A stretch of DNA of 48,098 bases from an uncultured Gammaproteobacteria bacterium (GTDB lineage Bacteria; Patescibacteriota; Patescibacteriia; Magasanikbacterales; GWA2-37-8), in assembly GCA_964619625.1 (NCBI GenBank), contig CAZUFD010000001.1, positions 138,258-186,355 of the forward strand, written 5' to 3'. Shown here in pieces: positions 6,757 through 35,425 of this stretch; position 1 is the first letter of the stretch; each line of letters begins with the position of its first letter. Under the pieces are notes generated by a model that saw only the letters and a list, made by a program, of their open reading frames with translations, ran no database searches and had not been told where the DNA came from. Both the position numbers and the translations under genes were made by a program.

Positions 6757-6851
6757 TATGAGCTAAAGCTGCATATATACTAATTATATATACTCATTCG
6801 TTCGGAAGTAATTAAGCAAGCTTATTACTTCGCTCACTCATCTCGCATATG
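6757..6851 (-). repeat. Tandem-GA hairpin element, copy 1
   Basis: Minus strand: TATGC GA g AT GA GT GA GC [GAAGTAA..TTACTTC] C GA AC GA AT GA GTATA; plus AGC-TAAA-GCT mini hairpin. Confidence 0.75.
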
Positions 6852-7280
6852 AAAAAAATTCTTCTATCTATACTTACAATCTCGGCCTTTGCATTTTATG
6901 TAGTGTATCAGCGTATGGGCTGGGGATCTTCCGTGGGTCCGCAGCTGCCCGGCCAGAATCCGGCTTTCACTTTTCCCGCATTCAGTACTGTGTTTGGAAA
7001 TTATAAAGACGGCAGATACCAAGGAATAAGTGTGGATGCGTATTATGGCCGAGTAGAAGTTTTAGCCATCATAGAAGGCGGCAGGATTGTTGATATAGAA
7101 TTTTTAGATTATCCGCACGAGCAGCCAACCTCCAAACAAATAAATGCCGAGGCCGTGCCAATGCTTGAGACCGAAGCAATTGTCGCGCAAAGCGCTGAGG
7201 TGGATATTGTATCCGGAGCTACCCAAACAAGCAGGGCATTTAAAGAATCGCTTGCCTCGGCGCTCGCTAAAGCCAAATAG
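6849..7280 (+). CDS. Membrane-anchored FMN-binding (flavinylated) domain protein
   Basis: YKDGRYQG, VDIVSGATQTS flavinylation motif, N-terminal TM. Confidence 0.88.
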   Translation: MKKILLSILTISAFAFYVVYQRMGWGSSVGPQLPGQNPAFTFPAFSTVFGNYKDGRYQGISVDAYYGRVEVLAIIEGGRIVDIEFLDYPHEQPTSKQINAEAVPMLETEAIVAQSAEVDIVSGATQTSRAFKESLASALAKAK

Positions 7281-7281
7281 C

Positions 7282-8025
7282 ATGCGAGATACGAGAATTT
7301 TAATGGGCATGCCTATTACGGTAGAAATCACCGATCAGACCGGCGCTCAAGAATCAATCAGTCAAGTGTTTAACTACTTTGATTATGTAGATAAAAAATT
7401 TAGTTTGTATAAACAGGCAAGTGAAATAAACAAAATAAATAGGCATGAAATTGATGAAACGGATTATACTAGTGACATGAAAGAAGTGTTGCGACTGTCC
7501 GAAGATACGAAAAATAAGACAAGTGGATATTTTAATATTAAAAATAGAAACGGCAACCTTGATCCGTCAGGGCTGGTAAAAGGATGGGCAATTTATAAGG
7601 CCGCGGAAATGCTTTTCAAAGCCGGATATAAAAATTTTTACGTGGAAGCCGGTGGTGATATTCAGGCTTCCGGTAAAAATAATTCTGGCCAAGATTGGCG
7701 GGTGGGGATACGTAATCCGTTTAATCAAGAAGAAATTGTAAAAGTAGTTCAGATCAGCAATATGGGCATGGCCACTTCCGGCACGTATATCCGCGGCCAG
7801 CACATCTATAATCCGCATAATATGGCAAACAATATTACGGAAATTACAAGTTTAACCGTGATCGGCGCCAGTGTTTATGAAGCTGACCGATTTGCCACGG
7901 CTGCCTTTGCCATGGGACAGCAGGGGATTAATTTTATTGAAAATATGCCAGGGCTAGAAGGGTATATGATGAATGTACATGGCGTGGCAACCATGACCAG
8001 CGGTTTTAAAAAGTATGTTGTATAA
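7282..8025 (+). CDS. apbE: FAD:protein FMN transferase
   Basis: MG start motif, DPSGLVKGW, EAGGD, ATSG.Y, HIYNP, ADRFATA; start re-set to ATG 7282. Confidence 0.9.
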   Translation: MRDTRILMGMPITVEITDQTGAQESISQVFNYFDYVDKKFSLYKQASEINKINRHEIDETDYTSDMKEVLRLSEDTKNKTSGYFNIKNRNGNLDPSGLVKGWAIYKAAEMLFKAGYKNFYVEAGGDIQASGKNNSGQDWRVGIRNPFNQEEIVKVVQISNMGMATSGTYIRGQHIYNPHNMANNITEITSLTVIGASVYEADRFATAAFAMGQQGINFIENMPGLEGYMMNVHGVATMTSGFKKYVV

Positions 8026-8031
8026 AAAAGT

Positions 8032-9546
8032 ATGTTGAAATATATTGATGATTTGCTTAATCGCGTGACAATGTATCGGCTGGTGCTCTATTATGTAACT
8101 GGCTTGTGGTTGGCAGCGTTTATCTTAAGTTTTTTTAAACTACTTCCATACACCCCGCTTGAATTTTTTATTTCGGCGGCGCTTATCGTGGGGGTTTGTT
8201 TATCGGTAAATTCAATTTTCGCGCGCGTGTTTGGCGCGCCGACCAACCTTGAATCTGTCTATGCTACGGCGTTTATTTTGATCCTGATAGTCCCGCCCAT
8301 GAGATCCGCCGGCCTTTTGCCGTTTTTGGCCTGGGCTGCGCTTTGGGCCATGGCTTCAAAATATATTTTTGCCATTTGGAAAAAACATATTTTTAACCCA
8401 GCAGCGTTTGCCGTGGGATTAACCGCTCTGACGCTTAACCGTTCCGCCAACTGGTGGGTGAGTAGCGTATATTTATTGCCATTTGTGGTAATTGGCGGAC
8501 TGCTTGTAGTACGAAAGATCCAGCGATTTGATTTGGTGATTAGTTTTTTGGTGGTGGCCTTTTTCTCTATTTCCGGTTTTAGTTTTCTAAAAGGCGCCGA
8601 TCCCTTGTCTGTGGTAGAAAAAATCATGCTTTATTCGCCGCTGTTATTTTTTGGTTTTGCCATGCTTACCGAACCGTCCGGCACGCCGCCTACCCGCAAG
8701 TTGCGCATCATGTATGGAGCTTTGGTCGGTCTTTTATTTAATCCCAATGCCCATATTGGATCTTTTTACTTTACGCCTGAGTTCGCATTGCTTACCGGTA
8801 ATATTTTTTCCTATTTAGTCAGTCCTAAACAAAAATTAGTTTTGCGGTTAAGAGAAAAAATTTCTTCGGCCAAGGATGTATATGATTTTTGGTTTACATC
8901 TGATAAAAAAATGAATTTTAAAGCCGGACAGTATATGGAATGGACCTTAGGGCACGAGTCTCAAGACAAGCGCGGTATTAGGCGCTATCTAACGATTTGT
9001 TCGTCTCCGACGGAAAAGGATATTATGGTTGGCGTAAAGTTCCCTCCCAATTCCAGCAGTTTCAAGCAATCAATGATTTCTTTAAAGAAAGGAGACACAA
9101 TCGTGGTTTCTCAACTGGCCGGAGAATTTGTCTTGCCTCGTGACGCAAGCAAAAAACTGGTTTTTATCGCCGGCGGGATTGGGGTGACGCCGTTTAGAAG
9201 TATGGTAAAATATTTGTTGGATAAAAAGGAGCAGCGAGATATAGTTTTACTCTACTGTAATCATACGCCGGATGATGTTGCTTATAAAGACATTTTTGAC
9301 GAGGCCAAAGCAGTGTTAGGAATGAAAACCGTCTACACGATTACCGATGAGCCGTTTCCAAAAAATTGGAAAGGAGCCACCGGATTTGTGGATGAAGCAA
9401 TGATTAAAAAGGCTGTGCCGGATTATAAGGAAAGGATGTTTTATATTTCTGGTACGCATGCCATGGTTGTGGCGTTTGTAGAGATTTTACAGAAAATGGG
9501 AGTGCGAAAAAAACAGATCATCCAAGATTTTTTTCCTGGCTTTTAA
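8032..9546 (+). CDS. RnfD/NqrB-like membrane domain fused to FNR-type NAD(P)H oxidoreductase
   Basis: KHIFNPAA and MLTEP in TM region; AGQY, RRYLTICS, FIAGGIGVTPF in cytosolic domain. Confidence 0.85.
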   Translation: MLKYIDDLLNRVTMYRLVLYYVTGLWLAAFILSFFKLLPYTPLEFFISAALIVGVCLSVNSIFARVFGAPTNLESVYATAFILILIVPPMRSAGLLPFLAWAALWAMASKYIFAIWKKHIFNPAAFAVGLTALTLNRSANWWVSSVYLLPFVVIGGLLVVRKIQRFDLVISFLVVAFFSISGFSFLKGADPLSVVEKIMLYSPLLFFGFAMLTEPSGTPPTRKLRIMYGALVGLLFNPNAHIGSFYFTPEFALLTGNIFSYLVSPKQKLVLRLREKISSAKDVYDFWFTSDKKMNFKAGQYMEWTLGHESQDKRGIRRYLTICSSPTEKDIMVGVKFPPNSSSFKQSMISLKKGDTIVVSQLAGEFVLPRDASKKLVFIAGGIGVTPFRSMVKYLLDKKEQRDIVLLYCNHTPDDVAYKDIFDEAKAVLGMKTVYTITDEPFPKNWKGATGFVDEAMIKKAVPDYKERMFYISGTHAMVVAFVEILQKMGVRKKQIIQDFFPGF

Positions 9547-9575
9547 TTTTCGTCTGCCGGTTGATAATTACATAT

Positions 9576-10067
9576 ATGCAATTTCATACTGAAGCAATAA
9601 TTCTACGGCCTTCTCTGCAAGATATCTTTTCTTTGCCGCCCCTATTTACCCAGGCGGTTCATACGGATTTTTCTTTTTATAATGAACCGGTAAAACAGCG
9701 TATCATGAAAAAAAATTCCCTGCTGCGATTATTTTTTGCCCGCCTGAGAAAGAGAAGAGTGTTACTCGTTGCAAAAATTAGCGACAAATGCGTGGGCGTG
9801 GTTATCGGAAGCCATACGGCCAGTATCGGCAATATTCATTGGTTGTTTGTGCTGCCCGAGTATCGGGGAAATAAAATCGGTTCGGCGCTACTGGCGCGCG
9901 CCGAAGCGGCTTTGGAAAAATTTGGTTGCCATAAGGTGGCACTCACCACGGAAATCGCCCCGGAATTTTATAAAAAATTAGGATATACGGTTGAAGGATT
10001 TTTAAAAAAACATTGGTGGAAAAAAGACTTCACGATTTTGAGTAAGAGTTTTGAGAAAATTGGGTAA
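9576..10067 (+). CDS. GNAT-family acetyltransferase
   Basis: LFVLPEYRGNKIGSALL acetyl-CoA motif, FYKKLGY. Confidence 0.85.
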   Translation: MQFHTEAIILRPSLQDIFSLPPLFTQAVHTDFSFYNEPVKQRIMKKNSLLRLFFARLRKRRVLLVAKISDKCVGVVIGSHTASIGNIHWLFVLPEYRGNKIGSALLARAEAALEKFGCHKVALTTEIAPEFYKKLGYTVEGFLKKHWWKKDFTILSKSFEKIG

Positions 10068-10163
10068 AAAAACAGAGCCTATTTTAGACCCGGCTCACAA
10101 CGAGGGTCCGCTGGGTGTGCTCTCCTAGACTTTAGCGAAAGTATTAGGAGTGTTGCGGTGGGG

Positions 10164-10442
10164 TTACCGCGGGCAGAAACAGCAAGCGCCTCGTCGGCAG
10201 TTGGTACAGCCGTTGTGCGCCTGCATACGCCGATCGGTGCAATATGCGCATCCGTTGGTGCAGTAGCCGCACCCCCGCCCCTGCTTGTCGCTCACAGGTT
10301 GCTGAGCCAGCTGTTTGGGCCGGCCTTTGGCTGCGAAGTACCGAAGCAGGAATATGGTGCAGACGAAGACGGCCACCCCCACAATCAGAAGCAGCGCCAG
10401 AACCGGGGTTCCGAGGCCGCTAAACGGGTTGTCTGGACTCAT
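10164..10442 (-). CDS. Small single-TM protein with Cys-rich C-terminus
   Basis: TM helix plus CxxC repeats; upstream AGAGGT SD-like site and TTGACA-N17-TATATA promoter on minus strand. Confidence 0.6.
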   Translation of the reverse strand: MSPDNPFSGLGTPVLALLLIVGVAVFVCTIFLLRYFAAKGRPKQLAQQPVSDKQGRGCGYCTNGCAYCTDRRMQAHNGCTNCRRGACCFCPR

Positions 10443-10603
10443 CTTTTCTATACCTCTTTTGCTAGACCCTATTGATTATAGGGGTATTTCTGGTGAAGAA
10501 AACCAGAATAATATATATCATTTTTAGCCATTTTTGTCAACCTTAAAGGTAGGGTAATTGCGGAATTTTGTTAGGTGTGCTACCATACTTTTTGTATAAA
10601 AAT

Positions 10604-10894
10604 ATGCCATTAGATGAAAAAATCTTAAGTAAAATCATGGAGCGGATAATGTTTGAATCCGTAGAGCAGGGAATAGACAGGTCTGATCCAAAAGAGATGC
10701 GGGATTTTATCAATCAAATCGTGGAGAAAGTCCTCGGAAAAGATCATCAGCAACAACAAGAATATGAAGAAACCATCGTTTCGGATATGTATAGGGAAGC
10801 AACGTTAGATCAGACAGGCAGTAAAGGTTATCACGAGAGGATGAAAGGCGCGCGCGCCAACGAATACAGAAATTTAGACGCCACCAGAAAATAA
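10604..10894 (+). CDS. Hypothetical protein
   Basis: ORF with plausible composition; start re-set to MPLDE. Confidence 0.6.
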   Translation: MPLDEKILSKIMERIMFESVEQGIDRSDPKEMRDFINQIVEKVLGKDHQQQQEYEETIVSDMYREATLDQTGSKGYHERMKGARANEYRNLDATRK

Positions 10895-10917
10895 TTTTTA
10901 ATTCATTTAACCCCAGT

Positions 10918-11454
10918 ATGCAAGACCTGCAACAAAAGATAAAAAGTGTGCCAAGAAAATATATCTACATCGGCTTGGCGATTATTTTACTTATAATTAT
11001 TTTCGCTTTTGCTTTTAGAAATAACGGGGCCGATCAAACAGATTCAGATAGCGCGGACTCCCAGGAAAATTTAACATCTGCTGATGGATCAGCAACTTCA
11101 ACTACATCCACGGCTGATACGACGAAAAAATCAACCAGCCCGACTAAAGCCCCCCCTGCTCCGCTTTCCGCCACCCAACGATATTTAGATGCCATCAAGA
11201 TTTATAAAACCTCGGGGTATTATTTTCAATTTGTTGATTGCCATGGTTTGCCAGGCAGCTTAACCCTTAAAAAAGGTAAAAAATTTATGCTTGATAACCG
11301 AGATGCTAAAACGAGAAAAATTGCGATTAAGGGCGGTCAAAGCTTCACTATTACTGCATATAACTTCGCGATTGCTACTGCCCCTTCCAAACCGGGCACT
11401 TATTATATAACCTGTGATGGCGGCGGCGCAGCTTCAATCTTGGTGCAGCAATAA
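10918..11454 (+). CDS. Membrane-anchored protein with S/T-rich linker and possible cupredoxin-like domain
   Basis: N-terminal TM, low-complexity linker, PGSLTLKKG...N.D...GTYYITC pattern. Confidence 0.65.
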   Translation: MQDLQQKIKSVPRKYIYIGLAIILLIIIFAFAFRNNGADQTDSDSADSQENLTSADGSATSTTSTADTTKKSTSPTKAPPAPLSATQRYLDAIKIYKTSGYYFQFVDCHGLPGSLTLKKGKKFMLDNRDAKTRKIAIKGGQSFTITAYNFAIATAPSKPGTYYITCDGGGAASILVQQ

Positions 11455-11473
11455 TTTTCAAAATGTTAAACAT

Positions 11474-11504
11474 AAAAAAACAGCCTTCTCAAGAGGCTGT
11501 TTTT
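11474..11504 (+). terminator. Intrinsic terminator
   Basis: AAAAACAGCCT-loop-AGGCTGTTTTT. Confidence 0.8.
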
Positions 11505-11506
11505 GA

Positions 11507-11535
11507 TTGACAGGACAAGGCTTTCTCGGTAGGCT
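11507..11535 (+). promoter_or_regulatory. sigma70 promoter of putative ncRNA (TTGACA-N17-TAGGCT)
   Basis: Perfect -35, 17-bp spacer, TA..T -10. Confidence 0.65.
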
Positions 11536-11540
11536 TGTTT

Positions 11541-11895
11541 TTAGTCGGAGAAAAGGCCTTCGGGCTGAAAGAAGGTTGGGTAGCAGGGGCAGCAAACCAG
11601 CAGACCTGCTCGGTAACAATCTGTGGTTTGTGGAAACACAAATCGGCCTAGTCAATCGTTGCCTATATCCCAAAAGGTGAGGCACGGTTATCCGGCTAAT
11701 AGCAAGGGAGTCGCTCCCGGTGGTTCTTTTTAATACGCAGAGATAGTTTTGGTGTCGCGGGGCGATGCCAGGATAAAGGCTGTGATATTAAAAGGGTGTA
11801 AAATTTGCGCTCCTCAGTGGTTGGGGAGTACTTCATACCTTGTCCACCGCAAGATCCCACCCTGTAAGAATGCTGGTATTCTTACAGGTTTTTTT
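11541..11895 (+). ncRNA. Unidentified highly structured ncRNA (~350 nt including terminator)
   Basis: Many nested helices with G-U pairs, UUCG and GAAA tetraloops, own promoter and terminator, no credible ORF. Confidence 0.7.
11861..11895 (+). terminator. Intrinsic terminator of the putative ncRNA
   Basis: CCTGTAAGAAT-loop-ATTCTTACAGG followed by T7. Confidence 0.85.
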
Positions 11896-11935
11896 AATTT
11901 GCCAATAACCTTTGTTTTTAGTAGAATAACGACAT

Positions 11936-12238
11936 ATGTCCCTCTCCACTCAAGAAGTAAAAAAAATTGCGCAGCTCGCGCGAATCAAACTAACGCCGGA
12001 AGAAGAAGCCAGACATGCCGAAACTATTTCGGCCGTTTTAGATTACATGAATATCTTAAATGAAGTAGATATAAGCGGGGTGGAACCAACCTTTCAGGTA
12101 ACCGGACTGGAAGATGTAACCCGAATAGATGAACCAAGAGACTGTAAAATAACAAAAGAATTAATGGCACAAATGCCGGAAGTGGAAAATGCCGAGCTGG
12201 TCGTGCCGGGCGTATTTGCCGGAACCGAAGAAGAATAA
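11936..12238 (+). CDS. gatC: Asp/Glu-tRNA amidotransferase subunit C
   Basis: VKKIAQLARI, LNEVDISGVEPT; adjacent to gatA. Confidence 0.92.
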   Translation: MSLSTQEVKKIAQLARIKLTPEEEARHAETISAVLDYMNILNEVDISGVEPTFQVTGLEDVTRIDEPRDCKITKELMAQMPEVENAELVVPGVFAGTEEE

Positions 12239-12240
12239 GT

Positions 12241-13674
12241 ATGTCAACATTAAATGAATTAACAATCAAAGAAGCGCAGGAAGGGTTGCGAAGCAAAAAA
12301 TTTACCGCCGTGGAATTAACGCAGGCGTGTTTGAATAGGATTAAAGAAAGAAATAAGGATATAAATGCGTTTATTACGGTTTGTGAAGAGTCCGCACTAG
12401 AAGAAGCCCGTATTGCCGACGGACTACTCGCTTCAGGCCAAGACGCGCCGCTCACCGGTATTCCGTTTTCCGTAAAAGATGCAATTTGCACAGCCGGTGT
12501 GCGCTCTACGGGTTCGGCCAAAATTTTGGATAATTATATGCCGCCGTTTGACGCAACGGTGATTGGCAAAATTAGAAAACAAGGCGGAGTACTTCTTGGT
12601 AAAAATAATTGCGATGCTTTTGGCCATGGCGCCAGCAATGAAAACAGCATGTATGGGCCGGTGCGCAACCCGCATGATTTATCTAAAGTTGCGGGTGGAT
12701 CATCCGGTGGTTCGGCCGCGGCAGTTGCCGATAACATGTCTATTTTTTCAATTGCCGAAGATACGGGCGGCTCTATTCGTCAGCCTGCCAGTTTTTGTGG
12801 TATGGCCGGTTTTCGTCCAACATATGGCCGCAATTCCCGATATGGCATTATGCCTATGGCTTCATCGCTTGATACGGTGGGTCCGATAACCAAAACTGTC
12901 TATGACAGCGCGCTCGTAATGCAGCAAATCGCCGGCGCTGATTTGCTAGATGCCACTACTATTGTTGATTCAGTACCGGATTATTTAAAAAATTTTGAAC
13001 AAGATTTAAAAGGCATGCGTGTCGGTATTCCCAAAGAATACTTTGAACTGGAGGGATTAAATGATGAAATAAAACAAATCACGCAAAAACAAATTGAGGC
13101 GCTAAAAAATTTAGGTTGCACAATTGAAGAAGTCAGTTTGCCGCATACCAAATATGCGATTGCGGTTTACTATATTTTAGTTCCCAGTGAAGATAGTTCA
13201 AATTTGGGAAGATTGGACGGTATTCGGTACGGCTCCAGACAAAAAGGAAAAGACCTGTATGATTTATATGCCACCTCTCGCGCTGAAGGTTTTCCTGAAG
13301 AAGTGAAACGCCGAATTTTAATTGGCACCTATGCGCTTTCGGCCGGATATTATGATGCCTATTACAAAAAAGCACAGACCGTGCGTACGCTGATTAAAAA
13401 AGATTTTGATGAAGCATTTAAAAAAGTAGACGTGCTCATTACGCCCACGTCGCCATTTGCCGCTTTCGGCGTGGGAGAAAAGAAAGACGATCCGTTGGCC
13501 ATGTATTTGGCTGATGTGATGGTTTCTCCGGCGGCGATTGCGGGTGTGCCGGCACTGTCGGTTCCATCCGGCAAAAATGCCGCCGGTTTGCCGATTGGCG
13601 TGCAGATTATCGGTTCACGAAAAAATGAAGAAGCAATTTTCAGAGTAGGAAATAAAATTGAAATAAGAGGGTAA
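12241..13674 (+). CDS. gatA: Asp/Glu-tRNA amidotransferase subunit A
   Basis: Amidase signature GGSSGGSAAAVA, DTGGSIRQPA, EVKRRILIGTYALSAGYYDAYY. Confidence 0.96.
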   Translation: MSTLNELTIKEAQEGLRSKKFTAVELTQACLNRIKERNKDINAFITVCEESALEEARIADGLLASGQDAPLTGIPFSVKDAICTAGVRSTGSAKILDNYMPPFDATVIGKIRKQGGVLLGKNNCDAFGHGASNENSMYGPVRNPHDLSKVAGGSSGGSAAAVADNMSIFSIAEDTGGSIRQPASFCGMAGFRPTYGRNSRYGIMPMASSLDTVGPITKTVYDSALVMQQIAGADLLDATTIVDSVPDYLKNFEQDLKGMRVGIPKEYFELEGLNDEIKQITQKQIEALKNLGCTIEEVSLPHTKYAIAVYYILVPSEDSSNLGRLDGIRYGSRQKGKDLYDLYATSRAEGFPEEVKRRILIGTYALSAGYYDAYYKKAQTVRTLIKKDFDEAFKKVDVLITPTSPFAAFGVGEKKDDPLAMYLADVMVSPAAIAGVPALSVPSGKNAAGLPIGVQIIGSRKNEEAIFRVGNKIEIRG

Positions 13675-13703
13675 ATTATTTACATATAATTTAAATTCAA
13701 CAT

Positions 13704-15071
13704 ATGCCTAAATCTGATTTGATCAAAGAATCAATGCCGGTTACCGGAGCCTCGGTAAAACCAGATTTAACCGTTGCCGCCCACACTTCCGGTGAAATGA
13801 TAAATTATAGGGACAGCTGGCGCATTTTTAGAGTTGTATCCGAATTTGTGGAAGGATACCAGCTCTTGGGCGAATTAACCAAAGAAGTAACTATTATGGG
13901 TTCGGCGCGATTGCCTGCCAATAGTAAATATTATCACATCGCTGAAGAACTAGGTTATTTGCTGGGAAAGAATGGTTTTACCACCATCACCGGCGGCGGT
14001 CCGGGTATTATGGAAGCGGCCAATAAAGGGGCTTTTGAAGCAGGTGGAGAATCTGTAGGTATAAACATCCAATTGCCCATGGAGCAGCGCATTAATCCGT
14101 ATGTAAAAAAATCAGCGGCATTTTTCTATTTCTTTTCCCGCAAAGTAATGTTAACGGCTCCGGCCAACGCCTTTGTGTTTTTTCCTGGCGGTTTCGGCAC
14201 GCTGGACGAATTTTTTGAAGTTGTAGACTATATTGAAATGGGGCACATGCCAAAAGTGCCGATTATTATGGTGGGCAAAGAATTTTGGGAGCCAATTATA
14301 AATTTTTTGCGCGCCAAATCCGCTCGCGAAGTCCATTCCATAAACGAAACCGATTTAAATCAGTGGCATGTGGTAGATACAGCCAAAGAAGCTTTTGAAT
14401 TTATAAAAGATACTGAAGATCGCCCCAATCCATGGGTAAAAGATCCGAGCAGTCCGTTTTACCAAGGTGATTTGAACTGGAGAATTTTTAGAATCATGGC
14501 GGAAATGGTAGATGGTTTTGAATTTCTTACCAAGATCCAGCGTGATGTGACCGTGCTTGGCACCAGCAGCATTCTGCAAGGCAGCCCGTATTACCAAGCA
14601 GCCTATGAACTGGGTAAAATTTTGGCAGACCAGCAATACACCACCATCACCGGCGGCGGTCCGGGTATTATGGAAGCGGCCAATAAAGGGGCTTTTGAAC
14701 GCGGTGGGCAAAGTTTGGGTATCAATATGCGCACGGAACGGGGAGAACGCATAAACAATTATGTTACCCAGTCTATTGGTTTTTTCTTCCCATATATTCG
14801 CAAACTTATAATTACCGCGCCTTCGGAAGCATTTGTATTTTTCCCTGGCGGTTTCGGCACTTTGCATCAGCTGTTTGAAATTTTAACGCTGCAGGAAACA
14901 AATAAAATAAAACCGATCCCGACGCTTCTCTATGGCCGTGAATTTTGGCAGCCGCTGCTAGATATTGTCCACAACTTACATGATGAATTTAAAACCATTA
15001 CCAGAATTGACGAAGACTTTTTGAAACTGATGGATACGCCCCAGGATATTCTGGAGCATCTAAAAAAATAA
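13704..15071 (+). CDS. Tandem two-domain LOG-family (Rossmann-fold, TIGR00730-like) protein
   Basis: Two copies of TGGGPGIMEAANKGA and PGGFGTL. Confidence 0.88.
   Translation: MPKSDLIKESMPVTGASVKPDLTVAAHTSGEMINYRDSWRIFRVVSEFVEGYQLLGELTKEVTIMGSARLPANSKYYHIAEELGYLLGKNGFTTITGGGPGIMEAANKGAFEAGGESVGINIQLPMEQRINPYVKKSAAFFYFFSRKVMLTAPANAFVFFPGGFGTLDEFFEVVDYIEMGHMPKVPIIMVGKEFWEPIINFLRAKSAREVHSINETDLNQWHVVDTAKEAFEFIKDTEDRPNPWVKDPSSPFYQGDLNWRIFRIMAEMVDGFEFLTKIQRDVTVLGTSSILQGSPYYQAAYELGKILADQQYTTITGGGPGIMEAANKGAFERGGQSLGINMRTERGERINNYVTQSIGFFFPYIRKLIITAPSEAFVFFPGGFGTLHQLFEILTLQETNKIKPIPTLLYGREFWQPLLDIVHNLHDEFKTITRIDEDFLKLMDTPQDILEHLKK
13980..14699 (+). repeat. 60-bp exact direct repeat (13980-14039 and 14640-14699) inside the LOG gene
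   Basis: Nucleotide-identical segments 660 bp apart. Confidence 0.92.
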
Positions 15072-15151
15072 GCATTGCCATGGCAACGCTTGAAATTACG
15101 TCGAGTTTCGGAAAAGAAAATTTATTTTCTTTTCGCTCAACTCTAGTAATT
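15070..15151 (-). repeat. Tandem-GA hairpin element, copy 2
   Basis: Minus strand: AATTAC..GAGTT GA GC [GAAAAGAAAAT..ATTTTCTTTTC] C GA AACTC..GTAATT plus a second small hairpin. Confidence 0.65.
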
Positions 15152-15162
15152 ATAGAAATAAC

Positions 15163-15960
15163 ATGATTCCATATTTTGAATTCCAAACTATTCCGCTTGG
15201 CCCGATTGTCATTCAGGTTTGGGGTCTTTTTGTGGCGCTTGGCATTATCGCGGCCATTACGTTTGCTTATTTTTTGTGCAAAAAATATTTGCTGTCCGGC
15301 GAAGTTGTGCTGGATATGGCTATTTGGGTGCTAATTGGCGGTTTTGTCATGGCGCGCGTATTTCATATTGTTTTTTACAATCCAGCGTATTATATGGATA
15401 GTCCAGCTGAGATAATCAAATTTTGGCACGGCGGCGCGTCATCGCTGGGCGGGTTTGTGGGTGCGGGCGTAAGCGCGTGGCTATTTGCCAAAAAAAGAAG
15501 ATTTACATTGCGGGAGCTGTTGCCATATATTGATATCGCGGCTCTGGGTTTGTGGCTGGGATGGGGTATAGGCCGCATTGGCTGTTTCTTTATTCATGAT
15601 CATCCGGGGACGCTTACCAGTTTTATCTTGGGCGTAAAATATCCGGACGGCACCAGATTTGATCTGGGACTTATGGAATCACTTTTGGGTTTTGCTTTAT
15701 TTATAACTTTTTATCTTTTATTTAAAAAATTAATTAAAATTCATTGGGGAGTAGTAAGTATATTTTCTTTTGGGGTGTATGCGGTAGCCAGGTTTTTTTT
15801 GGATTTCTTGCGAGTGCCGCCGGATTTTCCGGGCGGAGACGCGCGGTATGCATTTTTAACCCCGGCGCAGTGGGGGATGGTGATGGTTTTAATAGGCCTC
15901 ACTCTATTAAATATTTTTCTCTTTAAGAAAAAAATATTGCGACATAATAGTGAAATATGA
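15163..15960 (+). CDS. lgt: Prolipoprotein diacylglyceryl transferase
   Basis: ARVFH, WHGG.SS.GG, IGRIGCF, ARFFLDFLR motifs. Confidence 0.9.
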   Translation: MIPYFEFQTIPLGPIVIQVWGLFVALGIIAAITFAYFLCKKYLLSGEVVLDMAIWVLIGGFVMARVFHIVFYNPAYYMDSPAEIIKFWHGGASSLGGFVGAGVSAWLFAKKRRFTLRELLPYIDIAALGLWLGWGIGRIGCFFIHDHPGTLTSFILGVKYPDGTRFDLGLMESLLGFALFITFYLLFKKLIKIHWGVVSIFSFGVYAVARFFLDFLRVPPDFPGGDARYAFLTPAQWGMVMVLIGLTLLNIFLFKKKILRHNSEI

Positions 15961-16592: not shown

Positions 16593-16597
16593 TTACA

Positions 16598-16626
16598 TTG
16601 ACTTTATACCCGTTTTTATATAGAAT
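16598..16626 (+). promoter_or_regulatory. tRNA-Ser promoter (TTGACT-N17-TAGAAT)
   Basis: Near-consensus elements ~20 bp upstream of tRNA. Confidence 0.65.
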
Positions 16627-16645
16627 GAAACGGCAATAAACTTCG

Positions 16646-16730
16646 GGAGAGGTCGCATAGTGGCCTAGTGCGCACGCTTGGAAAGCGTGTATACAGAAAT
16701 GTATCGAGGGTTCAAATCCCTCCCTCTCCG
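16646..16730 (+). tRNA. tRNA-Ser(GGA)
   Basis: GGAGAGG/CCTCTCC acceptor, CACGC-TTGGAAA-GCGTG anticodon arm, long variable arm, TTCAAAT T-loop. Confidence 0.95.
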
Positions 16731-17597: not shown

Positions 17598-17611
17598 TAT
17601 AAAATCTAATT

Positions 17612-18082: not shown

Positions 18083-18095
18083 AAAATATAAAAAC

Positions 18096-26255: not shown

Positions 26256-26978
26256 ATGTCTTTAATTGAAGTAAAAAATTTGACCAAGAGTTATGAAAAT
26301 GACGGTGTATCCACCTCGGTGCTTTACGGTTTGAATTTTAAAATAGAAAAGGGTGAGTTTGTAGCAATTATGGGTCCTAGCGGATCTGGCAAATCTACGC
26401 TCATGCATATTTTAGGATTTTTAGACAAGCTTAGCTCCGGCTCCTATATTTTTGATGGCAAAGATGTGAGCGGATTAACCGATGATCAGCTGGCCGAAAT
26501 GCGCAGCAACCAAGTAGGGTTTGTTTTTCAAGCGTTTAATCTATTGCCGCGCACCACTGTGCTAGAAAATGTAATGCTGCCTCTTACGTATGTAAAAATG
26601 GATCAGGCGGAGAGAATTAAAAAATCAAAAGAAGCTCTAATTGCAGTTGGTCTGGAGCATAGATTAAATCATTTTTCCAATCAATTGTCGGGTGGAGAAA
26701 AGCAGCGCGTAGCCATCGCTCGGTCGCTCGTTAATAATCCGTCCGTTATTTTTGCCGATGAGCCAACCGGCAATCTTGATTCAAAATCCGGTTTGCAGGT
26801 AATGAGAATTCTGCAAAATTTAAATGAACAGGGCCATACAATTATTTTGGTTACCCATGAAAAATATACAGCCGATCATGCCAGACGAATATTGAGAGTA
26901 AAAGACGGCTTAATTATAGAAGATGTAGAGGTGGCAAAAAGATTATTTGCCAAGGATGGAGAAGAATTAATGAAATAG
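26256..26978 (+). CDS. MacB/LolD-like ABC ATP-binding protein
   Basis: [41 protein letters not shown]. Confidence 0.93.
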
Positions 26979-26985
26979 AGCTAAA

Positions 26986-27100
26986 TAGGGGCTAAAGCCG
27001 CTACTCATTTCGATTATATGGGCTAAAGCCACATATAATCTCGCTCGCTCGAAATTAAATTAAAACATTTAATTTAATTCTCTCGCTCGCTTCGATTATG
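26986..27100 (-). repeat. Tandem-GA hairpin element, copy 5 (composite, two GGC-TAAA-GCC hairpins)
   Basis: Minus strand: ATAATC GA a GC GA GC GA [stem] GA GC GA GC GA GATTAT; TTCGATTAT direct repeat. Confidence 0.8.
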
Positions 27101-28336
27101 AACATCCTAAAAGAAATTCACAATGTTTGGAATATTGTGGGTCGTAATAAAGTACGATCTTTTTTAACTATGCTTGGCATTGTTATAGGCATCATGTCTG
27201 TAATTGTTGTAATGTCTGTGGGAGCCGGCGCGCAAAGCTTAATCCTTAATCAGGTAAGCAGCCTGGGTTCAAATTTAGTCGGTATTCTCCCCGGCCAATC
27301 CGAAGACGAAGGACCCCCAGCTTCGGCTATGGGCATAGTAATTACCACCCTAAAGTACGAAGATTTAAAATCCCTTGTGGGGCCTGAATTCCCTTATATA
27401 GTGGCGGCCACAGCCTATGTGCGAGGCGTTGATACAGTTAACTGGGGTGATAATAAAACAGACACCAATTTTGTGGGCGTATCGGCAGCTTTGCCAGAAG
27501 TAGAAGATACAGATGTAAGCATCGGAAGATTTTTTTCGGAAGAAGAAGAGAAAAGTTTGGCTAGAGTCGCGGTCTTGGGAAGTCAAACGGCCAAGGATTT
27601 ATTTGGGGACACAGACCCGATAGGGAAACAAATTAGAATTAAAAAAACCTCTTTTACGGTTATCGGGGTGATGGGAGAGAGAGGAAGCAGCGGTTTTCAA
27701 AATCAGGATAATCAAATTTATACACCCATTACCACTGCGCAAAAATTATTGCTCGGCATAGACTATGTTAGTTTCGGACGTGTAAAGGTAGATAGCGCAG
27801 AAAATGTAGATAAAACTGTAGAATATGTTAAGCAAGTTTTGCGAGAGCGACATAAAATAACTAATCCGGAAGAGGATGATTTTTCTGTGCGCACAACCGC
27901 TCAAGGATTAGACGCTCTTACCAATATTACCAACGCGCTCAAGATTTTCTTGTCTGCAATCGCAGCCATTTCTTTAATTGTGGGCGGAATTGGAATTATG
28001 AACATTATGCTTGCAGCCGTGCAAGAGAGAACCAGAGAGATTGGTTTGCGCAAAGCAGTGGGCGCAAAAAACAGTAATATTATTACTCAATTTCTAATCG
28101 AGACAGTAATGATTACTTTTATGGGCGCGTTGATGGGGATATTGCTGGGGACTTTAATTTCTTTTGCCGCTGGTAAAGTTGCGCAAAGTTTAGGTTATCA
28201 CTGGGATATAGTTGTTTCTCTATCGTCTGTTTTAGCCGCTTGTGTGGTGGGCGTTAGTATTGGACTTGTGTTTGGCATAGTGCCGGCGCGCAGGGCTAGC
28301 AAATTAAACCCAATTGAAGCATTGCGATATGAATAG
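27098..28336 (+). CDS. MacB-like ABC permease
   Basis: RSFLTMLGIVIG, GGIGIMNIML..V.ERTREIGLRKAVGA, NPIEALRYE. Confidence 0.93.
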   Translation: MNILKEIHNVWNIVGRNKVRSFLTMLGIVIGIMSVIVVMSVGAGAQSLILNQVSSLGSNLVGILPGQSEDEGPPASAMGIVITTLKYEDLKSLVGPEFPYIVAATAYVRGVDTVNWGDNKTDTNFVGVSAALPEVEDTDVSIGRFFSEEEEKSLARVAVLGSQTAKDLFGDTDPIGKQIRIKKTSFTVIGVMGERGSSGFQNQDNQIYTPITTAQKLLLGIDYVSFGRVKVDSAENVDKTVEYVKQVLRERHKITNPEEDDFSVRTTAQGLDALTNITNALKIFLSAIAAISLIVGGIGIMNIMLAAVQERTREIGLRKAVGAKNSNIITQFLIETVMITFMGALMGILLGTLISFAAGKVAQSLGYHWDIVVSLSSVLAACVVGVSIGLVFGIVPARRASKLNPIEALRYE

Positions 28337-31493: not shown

Positions 31494-32792
31494 ATGGTCA
31501 AAAAAAAGGGGACAATTAAAAAATCTTCCAAGCCATTGCGCGTTAAACATACGCGTAAGCAAAAAGAGAAGAAAAAAGTTTTGGTAAAAAAATCACAAAA
31601 AAAATCGGTAAAAAAGTTTCTTCAACCTAAAAAAAACCAGCACTTCAAGCAAAAAGGCAAGCATCATAAAAAAAATCAAGAAGAGGAAATCGTAGCCGAG
31701 CCTTCGCTTAAAGATATTTGGGCGCTTGTTGCCAAGGGACGTACTCGCGGTTTTATTACCCAAGTAGAAGCTGAGGGTGTTTTTTCTCGTCCGGAACGGT
31801 ATCTGGATCTTTATGAGGGCTTTATGGATCTGCTGGATAAAAATGGTGTAACTATTGTAGAAACTGTCGGTAACTTGCTTGGCCGTAAAACAGAAAGCGC
31901 TCAACTTCTCCACCAGTTCCAGGGTAAACAGCCCGATATGGACACTCCATTTGATTTGGGTCAGATTTCTTCTGATTCTATACAGATGTATTTGCGTGAA
32001 ATTGGTAGAATACCATTGCTTAAATCCGCGGAAGAGATCGCTCTGGCCAAACGCAAAGAAAGAGGCGATAAAGAAGCGGACAGAAAACTGATAGAAGCGA
32101 ATTTAAGATTAGTCGTTTCTATTGCCAAAAAATTTGTAGGAAAATCTTTGTCATTGTTGGATTTAATCCAAGAAGGAAACATCGGCTTGTTTAGAGCTGT
32201 AAAAAAATTTGATTATCGCAAAGGGTTTAAATTTTCTACTTACGCCACTTGGTGGATACGCCAGGCCATTACTCGCGCCTTGGCCGACCAGTCGCGCACC
32301 ATTCGTATTCCGGTGCATATGGTAGAAACCATCAACCGCTTCCAGCAGGTACAGCGCCGACTACTGCAAGATTTGGGACGCGACCCAACCCCGGAAGAAT
32401 TAGCCGCGGAAATGGGCGAAGAAGTAGAAAAAATCAATCATATTATCAAAATTTCCCAAGACACCGTATCTTTGGAAATGTCTGTGGGCGACGATGACGA
32501 CGACGATTCTTCTTTGCAAGATTTTGTGGAGGATGTAAAAAATATGTCTCCGGACAGAGTGGCCGGTCTGCAAATTTTACGCGATTACGTAAAAGATGCC
32601 ATAAAAGACTTATCGCCGCGCGAGCAAAAGATTTTGGAAATGAGATTTGGCCTGACCGATGGCGTTACCCATACTTTGGAAGAAGTAGGCAAAGAATTTG
32701 ACGTTACCCGCGAACGTATTCGTCAGATTGAAGCCAAAGCTTTGGAAAAGATTCAGCACATGGATATTATCGCCAAGCTGAAGGATTATTAA
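31494..32792 (+). CDS. rpoD: Primary sigma factor with Lys-rich N-terminal extension
   Basis: [46 protein letters not shown]; follows dnaG. Confidence 0.95.
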
Positions 32793-32827
32793 TTTGCGAA
32801 ATGAGTGAGTGAAGAGCAAATATTATG
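32790..32827 (+). repeat. Collapsed tandem-GA element, copy 6
   Basis: ATTTGC GA a AT GA GT GA GT GA A GA GCAAAT; inner stem missing. Confidence 0.6.
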
Positions 32828-34045
32828 ACGATAGAAAATTTTAATCCTAGGGCCGCAGGACTTCCCCGAGAAAAAAACCTAGAGGATAAAATGATCCGGC
32901 AAGACGTGATAAGCCACGAAGAAGTAAAAGAATACGCTGATTTTATAATCAGCAAACTCAAATCTTTATCAGAAAATAATCAGGAAAAAGTAACTTCTTT
33001 TTTAGTTGACGCGTTTAGCGATGATACTATTTTGCACAAAGCCGGAGTGCGTATGAGCAAAGATTTATTTTTGTTGGACGAAAAAGAAGCCCTTGGCGCG
33101 ATAAAAAGAGTTAGAAAGGCGTTGATGGACGAATTAAAAGGGAAATTAGACAGAAAAATCTATTTACTTGTTGAGAATATCGTAAAAGACATTCCTAATA
33201 AAAACGCATCTGCTGGCAATCCGTATAACCCGGAACGTAAAAATATAATCAGCCAGGTAGTAGATGTGGATAATGATCGGGAAAAAATATATAAAGAGCA
33301 AGGTGCGTGGGGGGAGCAGAAATATACAGAAGAGGCTTTTTTGGTATTTAATAGACTGGCTCCTCATCCAAATATCGCGCAAGTGAAAGAGTATGATAAA
33401 GAAAATCATAAATTTATTTATGAAAAATTAAATTTTGTCTCGCTAGATAAGTATTTAGAAAGAGGAAAAGATTCCGCCGAAGTTAAATTGATTACAAGTC
33501 TAAAAGTTTTAAGAGATTGCATAAAGGGCGCAGCGTATTTGGCAGACAACGGTTTAGTGCTTGAAGATATTGAACCTACTAACGTGGGTGTAGAAAAAAC
33601 AGGCCCAGAAGTAAAAGGCATTTTATTTGACCTTGAAGGACTGATAAAGGCAGGAGTTGTAAAAAAGCCGCGTAAGCATAAAGAAGGTTATTTAGATTGG
33701 CAAACTTTTGATTATCGTCAAGCAGATAAATTTGCAGTTAGTCCTTATGAAACGGTCTGGCAGTTCGGTCTTTGTTTGGGCTATGTGCAAAAGTATTATT
33801 CCGGGAAAAATGATTTAGAGTCCAAAGGACCGGGTAAAGAAAAGATAAAAAAAATAATTAGCGATTTAAGAAATTTAGCTGAAGATATGGTTGAGTGGCG
33901 TAGCAGTAAGCCTGTGGATTCTGAAAAAGAAGATTGGAGAAAAAGAAAAGGCGCGCGTGCGCAAAGCAGGATAGATTTGAAAGAAGCGGAGGAAAGGCTA
34001 AGTAAAATTATTGATGATATAGAGAAGGAAAAAGATTTTGTATGA
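32825..34045 (+). CDS. Divergent protein-kinase-like protein
   Basis: IYK, EE helix, HPNIAQV, EDIEPTNV catalytic-loop-like, FDLEG (DFG-like), WQFG. Confidence 0.65.
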   Translation: MTIENFNPRAAGLPREKNLEDKMIRQDVISHEEVKEYADFIISKLKSLSENNQEKVTSFLVDAFSDDTILHKAGVRMSKDLFLLDEKEALGAIKRVRKALMDELKGKLDRKIYLLVENIVKDIPNKNASAGNPYNPERKNIISQVVDVDNDREKIYKEQGAWGEQKYTEEAFLVFNRLAPHPNIAQVKEYDKENHKFIYEKLNFVSLDKYLERGKDSAEVKLITSLKVLRDCIKGAAYLADNGLVLEDIEPTNVGVEKTGPEVKGILFDLEGLIKAGVVKKPRKHKEGYLDWQTFDYRQADKFAVSPYETVWQFGLCLGYVQKYYSGKNDLESKGPGKEKIKKIISDLRNLAEDMVEWRSSKPVDSEKEDWRKRKGARAQSRIDLKEAEERLSKIIDDIEKEKDFV

Positions 34046-35115
34046 AGATACTTTTTTCCGGCGGCGGAACTCTGGGGCCGGTCGTGCCGCTGCTGGCTGT
34101 TGCTGAAATTTATAAAAAACACAACCCCAAGGCGGAATTTCTTTGGGTAGGCACGCAAAACGGTCCGGAAAAAGAATTAATTTCTCAATATAATATTCCT
34201 TTTTTCACCTTAACTTCCGGAAAATGGCGCCGCTATATTTCGCTGTGGAATTTTTTTGATTTGTTTAAAATAACTTTTGGTTTTTTTCAGTCTTTATTTT
34301 TATTATGGCAGAAAAAACCGGATATGGTGGTAACAGCCGGAGGATTTGTAAGCGTGCCACTTCACGCCGCGGCTTTTGTGCTGGGGATACCAGCGTGGGT
34401 GCATCAGCAGGACGCGCAAGTTGGCCTGGCTAATAAGATTATGTCGCATACGGCCAAAAAAATTACCACGGCTTTGCGCGATAGTCAAAAATCATTTCCG
34501 GAAAATAAAACCGAATGGATAGGCAATCCGGTACGCGATCTGTTTGTAAAAGATATATCTGAGTCTAGACAGAAGCTTGGTATACCACCCGAAGCCCATG
34601 TAATTTTGGCTATGGGCGGTGGGACCGGCTCTAGTAGTATAAATAAATTAGTAATGGAAGCATTGCCAGCCTGGCCCAGAGATTGGCATATTATTCATTT
34701 GGTAGGACGCGAGCGGCCAAGGGCTTTACAAGAAAATGCGACAAAAGTATTTCCTAATTATCATGTGTTTCCATTTTTAAAAGAAGAAATGAAGGATGCT
34801 TACGCCATTGCCGAGGTTGTTATTACCCGAGCCGGTTTTGCCAGTATTACCGAACTGGCAGCCCTGGGCAAGGCGGCGATTCTACTCCCTATGTCGCATA
34901 CTCATCAAGAGGTAAACGCAAGGCTGCTCGCGGAAAATAAGGCAGCTATAGTCTTGGATGAAAGAATAGATAGCGGCTTGAAGTTGGCCAAAATCGTAGC
35001 CGAACTCATAGAATTTAAAGAGACCAGAGATTACTTGGGTAAACGATTACAGACGGTTTTACCTCCGGCCAAATCAGAGAAAATCATCCAAATTGTGGAT
35101 AGTCTTGCCTCTTGA
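34042..35115 (+). CDS. murG: UDP-GlcNAc:lipid I GlcNAc transferase
   Basis: GGGTLGPV, GGFVS.P, HQQD, GNPVR, GGGTG, RAG, HQ..NA. Confidence 0.92.
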   Translation: MKILFSGGGTLGPVVPLLAVAEIYKKHNPKAEFLWVGTQNGPEKELISQYNIPFFTLTSGKWRRYISLWNFFDLFKITFGFFQSLFLLWQKKPDMVVTAGGFVSVPLHAAAFVLGIPAWVHQQDAQVGLANKIMSHTAKKITTALRDSQKSFPENKTEWIGNPVRDLFVKDISESRQKLGIPPEAHVILAMGGGTGSSSINKLVMEALPAWPRDWHIIHLVGRERPRALQENATKVFPNYHVFPFLKEEMKDAYAIAEVVITRAGFASITELAALGKAAILLPMSHTHQEVNARLLAENKAAIVLDERIDSGLKLAKIVAELIEFKETRDYLGKRLQTVLPPAKSEKIIQIVDSLAS

Positions 35116-35162
35116 TTTTTTTATTACATTAGTATAGAATAATTAACACTTAGTTAAAATTT

Positions 35163-35235
35163 GGGTCGGTAGCTCAGCTGGTAGAGCAATGCCCTTTTAA
35201 GGCAGTGGTCCTGGGTTCGATCCCCAGCCGACCCA
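35163..35235 (+). tRNA. tRNA-Lys(TTT)
   Basis: GGGTCGG/CCGACCC acceptor, CT-TTT-AA anticodon loop, TTCGATC T-loop. Confidence 0.93.
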
Positions 35236-35295
35236 CGACGCGATGCGTTGTGGTAAAAAGATACATAGTCTTTATAATACAGTTATATACAATTT

Positions 35296-35369
35296 GGGCG
35301 TTTAGCTCAGCTGGTTAGAGCGCCTCGTTTACACCGAGGAGGTCTAGGGTTCGAATCCCTAAGCGCCTA
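35296..35369 (+). tRNA. tRNA-Val(TAC)
   Basis: GGGCGTT/AGCGCCT acceptor, CCTCG-TTTACAC-CGAGG anticodon arm. Confidence 0.95.
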
Positions 35370-35425
35370 CATAAGAGCGAGCAAATAGTTTTGCTCGCGA
35401 CAAGGGATGAGAATACAAAAGAAAT

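Follow-up and report, generated by a model that had tools for sequence, protein, structure and literature searches.

The intergenic regions of a 48,098-nucleotide stretch of DNA from a groundwater bacterium of the Patescibacteria (contig CAZUFD010000001.1, positions 138,258–186,355; hereafter the window, G000:C1:138258-186355 in our numbering) contain copies of a short repeat in which GA faces GA along a hairpin, the GA-zipper element. The copies belong to a dispersed family that turns over between genomes, and only the antisense DNA strand gives a coherent long helix. On balance, and with modest confidence, we read the element as a non-autonomous mobile DNA hairpin of Patescibacteria, comparable to miniature inverted-repeat transposable elements (MITEs) or repetitive extragenic palindromes (REPs); its manner of insertion and any role at the RNA level we infer. 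The genome that holds the window (G000; 0.98 Mb, 42% GC, 28 contigs, 94% complete) was compared with 15 further genomes of its genus, 41 related genomes for a strict sequence pattern, the 24 genomes of family f1 and metagenome contigs from three runs (X1, X2 and X3) of one groundwater study.

The repeat unit measures roughly 90–130 bases. On the purine-rich strand, here the GA strand, X at the gene start leads into a 5′ arm (GA-A-AT-GA-GT-GA). G-N, a variable, AT-rich hairpin and a C separate this arm from the 3′ arm (GA-GC-GA-AT-GA), after which come X′, L and a second X; X is the host or target flank, X′ its complement and L a small hairpin or loop. The consensus of 22 aligned copies (alignment A1) reads TCATATTC-GA-A-AT-GA-GT-GA-G-n-[GAAAT..variable hairpin..ATTTC] in its 5′ part and C-GA-GC-GA-AT-GA-GTATATATG-n-GGCTTTAGCC-CATATA in its 3′ part. 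Six GA dinucleotides are invariant in all 22 copies and form three pyrimidine-GA-purine (Y-GA-R) steps facing GA steps; each 2-nt step between them is purine-pyrimidine, so that every GA has a Y-GA-R context. Pairing of the arms on this strand can form a zipper of three tandem G·A/A·G pairs with 2-bp RY Watson-Crick steps in between. Each arm is at the same time a direct repeat of the other, and the sense strand reads ACTCATT(T)CG twice. Three copies in the window, numbered 1, 4 and 5, have a bulged purine following the outermost GA and pass into the AT-rich inner stem through a GA-G-N-GAA...TTC-C-GA junction:

26979–27100, minus strand (GA strand), 96.5 bits: copy 5, canonical, between an ABC ATPase gene (stop codon 26976–26978) and a MacB/FtsX permease gene (ATG 27098–27100; Pfam).
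Copy 5, plus strand, left part: older remnant (hairpin like the small hairpin H2, arm and X) at about 26988–27020; duplicated X 27012–27020; L GGCTAAAGCC 27021–27030; X′ 27031–27040.
Copy 5, plus strand, right part: distal TC arm 27041–27051; inner hairpin about 27052–27081; proximal TC arm 27082–27093; X with ATG 27094–27100.
6757–6852, minus strand, 78.4 bits: copy 1, canonical, upstream of a gene for an FMN-binding-domain protein (ATG 6849–6851).
Copy 1, plus strand, left part: GAGCTAAAGCTG hairpin 6760–6771; duplicated X 6772–6780; loop TAATT 6781–6785; X′ 6786–6793.
Copy 1, plus strand, right part: distal arm 6794–6804; inner hairpin 6805–6831; proximal arm 6832–6845; X with ATG 6846–6851.
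20882–20999, GA strand on the plus strand: copy 4, long inner hairpin, abutting the 5′ end of tRNA-Pro (minus strand, 20817–20890).
Copy 4, left part: X, the reverse complement of tRNA nucleotides 1–9, 20882–20890; 5′ arm with two GA steps 20891–20903; 66-nt inner module about 20896–20961.
Copy 4, right part: 3′ arm 20964–20975; X′ GGGCTATA 20976–20983; loop TCCCAG 20984–20989; duplicated X 20990–20999.

The original prediction, made from the letters of the window, had proposed that GA opposes GA in alternation with covarying 2-bp Watson-Crick steps, and this is what copies 6757–6852, 20882–20999 and 26979–27100 and the statistics of A1 show. Among the 23 proposed Watson-Crick pairs, 92.9% of cells were paired, compared with 80.0% when columns were shuffled, a level that none of 500 shuffles equalled, and 17 of the 23 pairs had compensatory changes on both sides. 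When the partner was slid by 1–3 columns, pairing fell to 26–57%. In alignment A2, a fit to the model of 97 different copies drawn from many genomes, with most loci fetched by a pattern already holding the GA arms, double changes occurred in 26 of 35 pairs, again reached by 0 of 500 shuffles. The strict pattern gave 22 matches in G000 and was present in 19 of the 41 related genomes, and the reversed pattern gave none in all 41, so the family stands above the shuffled and reversed background. The prediction had also spoken of a shared architecture rather than a shared sequence; the dispersed family was borne out, and it is defined by structure as much as by sequence.

The long hairpin is a property of one DNA strand, because the complementary (mRNA) strand opposes only TC to TC. 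In 34 canonical copies of G000, the 136 pairs of the zipper steps comprise 110 Watson-Crick, 24 G·T and 2 A·C pairs, and the 204 pairs of the outer stem, formed by X, comprise 185 Watson-Crick, 8 G·T and 1 A·C pairs with 10 mismatches. In A2, 484 of the 485 cells of the five step pairs hold a standard pair when read on the GA strand (1 is non-standard); 73 of the standard ones are G·U and therefore C·A on the opposite strand, although the copies are related by descent and these counts are not independent events. RNA nearest-neighbour parameters made the GA strand the stabler one in 33 of the 34 copies (mean −18.9 versus −13.6 kcal/mol), whereas DNA parameters, which have no tandem-GA term, did so in only 22 of 34 (−9.1 versus −8.6). 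The predicted greater stability of the GA strand was thus recovered with the RNA set and not with the DNA set; the failure of the latter to separate the strands is probably a limit of the parameter set, usable neither for nor against.

The family is far larger than the copies in the window. A regular expression for the junction gave 52 matches in G000, about 40 of them plainly one family, and paired nhmmer matches of both arms defined 44 elements. A covariance model (R1) built from A1 and counted at E≤1e-3 found 57 copies in G000 and between 1 and 83 copies in every one of the 15 further genus genomes, so that the further copies expected from the prediction were abundant. Within family f1, 23 of 24 genomes had a model match, and true copies were found in records titled Candidatus Magasanikbacteria, Uhrbacteria, Portnoybacteria and Berkelbacteria. 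Contig ends of G000 fall in element copies (C8:1-121, C17:20-128 and C22:5165-5195); the element breaks assembly, and copy counts of fragmented genomes are lower bounds. Members of one inner-hairpin subfamily precede unrelated genes in G000, G003, G011, G012 and G013; those of the long-hairpin subfamily are likewise found before unrelated genes in G000, G005, G007, G011 and G012. Carriage by phages was considered and set aside; the three IMG/VR matches are coding sequence without the hairpin. At G000:C1:131459-131550 and at locus L062 of G012, the element precedes a 16-codon open reading frame (ORF), MEFFERTKGKFTEGEK, whose start is conserved in G012, where stop codons then interrupt the frame repeatedly; the ORF may encode a short peptide or may represent a broken or recoded gene. 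L062:1-99 also gave a partial match resembling an AdoCbl riboswitch (34.8 bits, E=0.0014, below the gathering score, cut at the locus end).

Copies sit flush with the 5′ boundaries of genes. The GA strand is antisense to the adjoining gene, whose start codon appears, reverse-complemented, as the leftmost CAT of the consensus. In 36 of the 44 elements of G000 the end of the element is the exact ATG of an ORF of at least 60 amino acids; of the other eight, four lack an ATG, three have short ORFs and one lies at a contig end. Genuine-looking N-termini served in this way include those of GroES, L20, NusG, adenylate kinase (Adk), DnaK, an MreB-like protein and HPF. Other copies lie flush with tRNA position +1, at tRNA-Pro in the window, at two further tRNAs in G000 and at two in records titled Berkelbacteria. 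Targeting of gene starts and tRNA ends, as originally predicted, is therefore seen at both kinds of site. In 42 of 50 cases the ORF upstream runs in the same direction as the gene, and about 20 of these 42 ORFs end no more than 20 nt from the element, which then forms the entire intercistronic spacer. A bias towards one replication strand, which had been raised as a test of the idea, did not appear: the positive-skew arm of contig C5 of G011 has 14 GA strands on ‘+’ and 19 on ‘−’, and local gene direction decides.

Translation starts in G000 make little use of Shine-Dalgarno (SD) sequences, with an SD-like motif at 78 of 706. A T before ATG was rejected as a target preference; it is uninformative, since 502 of 666 element-free long ORFs in G000 have T at −1 of their first ATG. 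Alternative pairing of the anti-SD sequence with the conserved leader ACUCAUUUCG was rejected as well: the 16S of G000 is not assembled, and the anti-SD was read from three relatives (G010, G011 and G012), whose 16S 3′ ends are the ordinary GGAUCACCUCCUUU, so that the conserved leader is not an alternative SD sequence. A sigma-70 consensus scan of the gene strand, covering positions 6500–21500 only, found no site inside copies 1 or 2. Accessibility of the AUG was considered as a reason for the orientation or for the upstream X; in 28 copies folded by partition function it was 0.49 for the sense strand, 0.45 without the upstream X and 0.47 for the GA strand, with no difference between them.

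The flank of each target is copied into the element. Along the gene strand, a first X is followed by L, X′, the distal arm, the inner hairpin and the proximal arm, and a second X then adjoins the gene; the inserted unit (L, X′ and core) lies between direct target repeats of 3–19 nt. L is most often GGGCTAAAGCCC and at times CTAAGG or others. The usual target X is a T-ATG start context or a TATA-containing tRNA 5′ end: at most ORFs it resembles TATATG, and longer forms occur at tRNA-Pro (9 nt), at two other tRNAs (12–15 nt) and at the MreB-like gene (10 nt, two codons among them). X′ and the distal X change in step with X throughout, and X′ is able to pair with either X. The predicted arrangement of X, zipper, X′, loop and X was thereby recovered at tRNA-Pro, at the two other tRNAs, at the MreB-like gene and in ATG contexts. 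The duplicated flank measures about 3–4 nt in the variant copy 2 (below), 5–8 nt in ATG contexts and 9–15 nt at tRNA 5′ ends. Several copies have a piece of the proximal arm just before the distal X, and the distal, duplicated ATG is followed by GGC TAA in 14 of 29 small-hairpin (H2) copies of G000 and 11 of 33 of G011.

Comparison of orthologous sites demonstrated turnover. Empty sites, which the original prediction had named as a check, were found for copy 5 in five relatives, in a census of G000 against 810 kb of G011, and for copy 2 in X1–X3. At the ATPase/permease junction of copy 5, G011, G010, G009, G008 and G003 lack the element and have 4–24 nt, G012 carries another copy of the GA-zipper family, and G005, G002 and G013 (loci L017, L021 and L022) have unrelated palindromic inserts; small inserts seem to favour this spacer. 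Ends of the GTCATTCTGA...TCAGAATGAC type occur on the inserts of G005 and G002 and not on that of G013, all three lying between the orthologues of 26256–26978 and 27098–28336. The permease starts with GTG in G011 and with the element's ATG in G000, and a second GTG/ATG case was found elsewhere; the gene keeps an intact start after insertion, and in these two cases gains an ATG where the relative has GTG. The census mapped 17 G000 sites in G011 (3 filled, 7 empty and 7 unclear) and 25 G011 sites in G000 (4 filled, 14 in the empty class, 4 of these doubtfully mapped, 6 unclear and 1 far). Contigs of X1, X2 and X3 join 15071 to 15158 with only AG between them, so copy 2 is absent from a strain about 93% identical. 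At the site of copy 4, other contigs of these runs, from a co-occurring strain, have a short inner hairpin in place of the 66-nt module, which in the long subfamily (20896–20961, GAAATAGACAGG...CTGGATATTTC) is a nested hairpin; inner modules thus appear exchangeable. Near-identical strains were not found in the metagenome collection, in which the best relative by a marker protein was 86% identical.

Besides copies 1, 4 and 5, the window holds a variant, a decayed copy and a fragment of the family:

15070–15157, minus strand: copy 2, variant, upstream of lgt (ATG 15163); covariance model 18.4 bits, E=0.12.
Copy 2, parts: hairpin AAGCATTGCC-ATGG-CAACGCTT; X′ GAAATTAC; GAGCGAA...TTCCGA junction; X GTAATTAT.
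17049–17133, minus strand, 31.1 bits, E=2e-4: decayed copy, ending at the in-frame ATG 17130–17132 of ORF 17124–17597.
32793–32826, plus strand, 15.1 bits, E=0.62: 34-nt fragment with 5′-arm sequence CGAAATGAGTGAGTGAAG within a TTTGC/GCAAA hairpin.

Reading and folding of the seven segments listed in the original prediction revealed a precise plan common to four. The segments at 6757–6852, 20882–20999 and 26979–27100 stood as copies, 15070–15151 turned out to be a variant and 32790–32827 a fragment, 16713–16880 and 35375–35412 belong to another family, and 17049–17133 had been overlooked. Copy 2 has a single GA·GA step and a 5-bp Watson-Crick stem and is one of a three-copy subfamily in G000. 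The fragment lies between the stop codon of rpoD and the ATG at 32825 in the opposite orientation, with the GA strand as sense, and the same site in G011 reads ‘TAG T ATG’. The ORF that begins there (32825–34045, 406 amino acids), between rpoD and murG, matches the protein-kinase profile PF07714 weakly (23.7 bits). The genes rpoD and murG are adjacent in three metagenome relatives (L037, L042 and L046), and DNA comparison places no counterpart of the 406-residue ORF there.

The remaining two segments belong to a second family, here type 2, at the 3′ ends of tRNA genes:

16713–16880, plus strand: type 2, full (copy 3), at the 3′ end of tRNA-Ser; X 16713–16731; hairpin L 16733–16759; X′ GGGATTTGAAC 16760–16770; GC-rich core 16771–16859; second X, with CCA, 16860–16880.
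35371–35412, plus strand: type 2, partial, after tRNA-Val; L hairpin and X′ only, without core and second X.
G000:C12:22199-22289, C12:11648-11704 and C1:107717-107746: further type-2 sites.

Type 2 shares the X-L-X′-core-X layout with the GA-zipper family but has hardly any GA·GA. Direct repeats of the tRNA 3′ end (about 19 nt) surround the hairpin, followed by an inverted copy of the T-loop region and the core, which is conserved, GC-rich and about 90 nt long (GGAGCGATG..CGACGCAGG..GGGCGAG..CCGCGAG..GGTGGCTAGAC..GTCGAAGCC), with stems that show compensatory changes. At tRNA-Ser, CCA is present in the second repeat only. G000 has two full and two partial copies, the fetched parts of G011 gave six matches, and the orthologous tRNA-Val of G011 carries a complete element. 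Type 2 has no family match in Rfam. Contig joints that skip it (16732 to 16858 and similar) were not used, as their sides of 26–31 letters at 85% likeness may be other organisms' tRNA-Ser genes.

The original prediction took the element to be non-autonomous, with no mobilising enzyme in view, and our searches agree: profiles for Y1_Tnp (PF01797), RVT_1, TnpB, rve and DDE_Tnp_1 found nothing in G000, with its 94% completeness and with other transposase families not searched, and G000 has no multi-copy ORFs, only six paralogue pairs of at least 60% identity, none of them like an insertion sequence (IS) in copy number. The link that it drew to HUH/Y1 enzymes was not supported. PF01797 matched one of the 15 other genus genomes (G014), all of which carry the element, and 6 of 14 known genomes used as a control. 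Rfam at gathering thresholds returned only four tRNAs from the window, and a scan by E-value of 16 copies from seven genomes gave only two unrelated weak matches. Literature on MITEs and repeats in Patescibacteria or the Candidate Phyla Radiation (CPR), and on G·A pairs in REP elements, yielded nothing relevant, with supplementary files outside the search. In the Rfam and literature searches made, the element matched no described family.

If the element is mobile, the single-stranded GA hairpin would be the form that is recognised or used in copying. Insertion with a duplicated flank would put X at the outer foot of both hairpins, and fold-back (quasipalindrome) template switching may rewrite the spacer between the hairpins into the complement of X. 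The sole orientation tolerated would be the one that puts the non-folding pyrimidine strand into the transcript, and survival of only that orientation would explain why orientation is coupled to the gene. More speculatively, the variable duplication, the failure to find known transposases and the fragments of the distal arm beside the distal X are compatible with microhomology-mediated template switching from a donor copy. An ampler proposal, which we put forward tentatively and hold to be rather doubtful, would see in the family a mobile element of a new class that occurs widely among Patescibacteria, has no transposase of its own, forms a sheared-G·A zipper on one strand in single-stranded DNA, inserts at the 5′ boundaries of genes and tRNAs, hands the gene a new leader and start codon, rewrites the spacer by fold-back template switching, and spreads through host replication and repair (microhomology-mediated template switching) or through an unrecognised structure-specific enzyme. 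Several observations weigh against mobility. Some empty sites retain remnants (for example, TATATGGGCTT-ATG), so part of the polymorphisms are deletions and not never-occupied sites. To our knowledge no transposase makes duplications as variable as 3–19 nt; here no transposase of the tested families accompanies the copies, nor any multi-copy ORF, in a genome that is 94% complete and whose contigs break at copies. A flush position at ATG or tRNA +1 with gene-coupled orientation is what would be expected of a cis-acting expression signal, and the flat accessibility values (0.49, 0.45 and 0.47) leave the account of orientation by selection unsupported. The DNA parameters that do not favour the GA strand, the common descent behind the G·U counts and the pattern-based collection of A2, all given above, belong on the same side.

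The chief competitor is a regulatory reading. The element may be a cis-acting expression cassette in sense mRNA or pre-tRNA that supplies a pyrimidine-rich, unstructured leader ending in T-ATG for SD-independent initiation; the small hairpin X-L-X′ would compete with X′...X(AUG) as a switch or insulator, and the cassette would have spread by recombination or be a domesticated mobile element. We regard this as tenable, if on the whole unlikely. It would account for the 36 of 44 copies that end exactly at ATG, among them those of GroES, L20, NusG, Adk, DnaK and the MreB-like gene, for an orientation set by the gene and not the replichore, and for the roughly 20 of 42 co-directional cases with 20 nt or less to spare, in which the element is the whole intercistronic region; it also fits the scarcity of SD motifs (78 of 706 starts), the duplicated ATG followed by GGC TAA in the H2-bearing copies (14 of 29 and 11 of 33) and the ability of either X to pair with X′. 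However, the geometry of GA·GA and G·U is sensible only on the antisense strand, because the mRNA strand gives UC·UC and C·A; the genes served have no common function, sites turn over fast between species, the accessibility test showed no effect of the upstream X, and copies 1 and 2 have no sigma-70-like promoter. The cassette and the mobile element are the main rivals, yet they are not exclusive. A related candidate, a hammerhead-like 5′ processing cassette in which X′ would pair with the first downstream bases of the RNA, was suggested by the layout and rejected, as the core is missing from the sense strand and no ribozyme emerged from the Rfam scan.

Other accounts are far less probable. 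That the GA strand is transcribed into cis-antisense small RNAs, with a tandem G·A helix resembling a kink turn (K-turn) that covers the start codon or the tRNA 5′ end, is improbable: RNA parameters do favour that strand in 33 of 34 copies, T-rich sequence follows the small hairpin on it and copy 2 scores as terminator-like (15091..15070), but the 5′ arm abuts the gene, so that a promoter would need to sit in 57 unrelated coding regions, and no Rfam match was found. We consider it very improbable that the copies are REPs, REPINs or IS200/IS605-derived elements (PATEs) moved as single-stranded DNA by a Y1 (HUH) transposase, as the original prediction had suggested from an imperfect one-strand hairpin that is extragenic, multi-copy and without an autonomous partner nearby. 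PF01797 gave no match in G000 and matched just 1 of 15 genus relatives under a search that matches 6 of 14 controls, TnpB was not found in G000, the 14 ‘+’ and 19 ‘−’ copies on the C5 arm of G011 give no replication-strand bias, flanks are duplicated, whereas IS200/IS605 insertion is not known to make a duplication, and the consensus has no GTAG foot. Least probable of all is a double-stranded DNA operator of a global regulator whose dimer would bind the arms as direct repeats; the arms are indeed mutual direct repeats conserved across distant Patescibacteria, but their covariation is antiparallel (columns 16-56, 17-55, 12-60 and 20-52) and not in direct-repeat register, copy number ranges from 1 to 83 within one genus and the downstream genes are unrelated.

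Small palindromic repeats occur in many bacteria, and a transposase accounts for nearly every case that is understood. The element is the dominant repeat of very small, transposase-poor genomes, and three features were not found described jointly in the literature searched: a conserved G·A helix that only one strand folds, a position flush with start codons and tRNA 5′ ends, and direct plus inverted copies of the flank. If mobile, it offers an inroad to how DNA spreads in CPR bacteria that lack known mobile-element enzymes, and it may shed light on the replacement of start codons and leaders where SD sequences are not used. If it is instead a regulatory cassette, it would be a lineage-wide signal for translation or processing; transcript 5′ ends directly past CUCAUUUC, if true, would point to a processing signal.

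Comparison with known systems brings out both shared features and differences. MITEs of the Correia, ERIC, BOX and RUP type are co-transcribed and alter the expression of their neighbours. The element resembles them in length (about 100 nt), palindromic form, insertion polymorphism between strains, flanking duplications and intergenic or intercistronic position; it differs in having no ordinary terminal inverted repeats, a duplication that varies from 3 to 19 nt, no parent IS that we found, an inverted copy of the target inside and a hairpin confined to one strand. Of the marks of a classical MITE it shows orthologous presence/absence polymorphism, and not a fixed duplication length or, for the transposase families searched, terminal repeats matching an IS. 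PATEs derived from IS200/IS605 have an orientation tied to the replication strand (the lagging-strand template) and insert without target duplication, whereas the orientation here follows the gene, flanks are duplicated and neither TnpA (Y1) nor TnpB was found in G000. Integron attC sites are structure-defined one-strand hairpins with extrahelical bases and gene-tied orientation that lie 3′ of the cassette ORF and have core sites R″/R′ (RYYYAAC / GTTRRRY) used with the IntI integrase. The element shares the structural definition, the one-strand hairpin, the extrahelical bases and the tie of orientation to the gene, but it has a conserved consensus without R/L boxes and lies 5′ of ORFs; the integron integrase (IntI) was not searched for. 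K-turns, which form in transcribed RNA, consist of a C-stem, a 3-nt bulge and then tandem G·A pairs; the element has tandem GA steps, with junction asymmetries of 1 nt and 1–2 nt instead of the 3-nt bulge. REP and REPIN sequences are defined by a GTAG-type tetranucleotide at the 5′ foot of the palindrome; in the 22-copy consensus neither foot has it, the feet being CATAT../..ATATG.

REPs and REPINs with their RAYT transposases (PMC3116915) are also short, extragenic, imperfect palindromes that are non-autonomous, number tens per genome, form hairpins and often lie in operon transcripts. The element departs from that description in the lack of a RAYT/Y1 in G000 and 14 of the 15 others, the missing GTAG foot, its systematic GA·GA mismatches, a position flush with gene 5′ ends and not after 3′ ends, and a flank that is duplicated with an inverted copy. 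Mobile promoters and 5′ regions (PMC3575422) are likewise highly similar upstream regions before unrelated genes, within and between genomes; unlike them, the element has no sigma-70-type promoter in copies 1 and 2, is conserved up to the start codon and also occurs at tRNA 5′ ends. Template switching at quasipalindromes makes imperfect inverted repeats more perfect during replication (PMC7202029) and would account for the complementarity of X′ to X; it is a mutational process and not an element, and here it is deduced from end products. A structural parallel is that of DNA hairpins with sheared G:A pairs, which form stably from consecutive Y-GA-R blocks, as determined by nuclear magnetic resonance (PMC10085684). 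That work on CGAG blocks concerns oligonucleotides or human promoter and centromere sequences in vitro, whereas the element is a dispersed bacterial repeat known from sequence alone. Both place tandem G·A, flanked as Y-GA-R, between 2-bp Watson-Crick steps, and the reference list of that paper includes a title reporting a d(GCGAATGAGC)2 duplex of that sort, whose letters are those of the element's own 3′ arm, GCGAATGAG.

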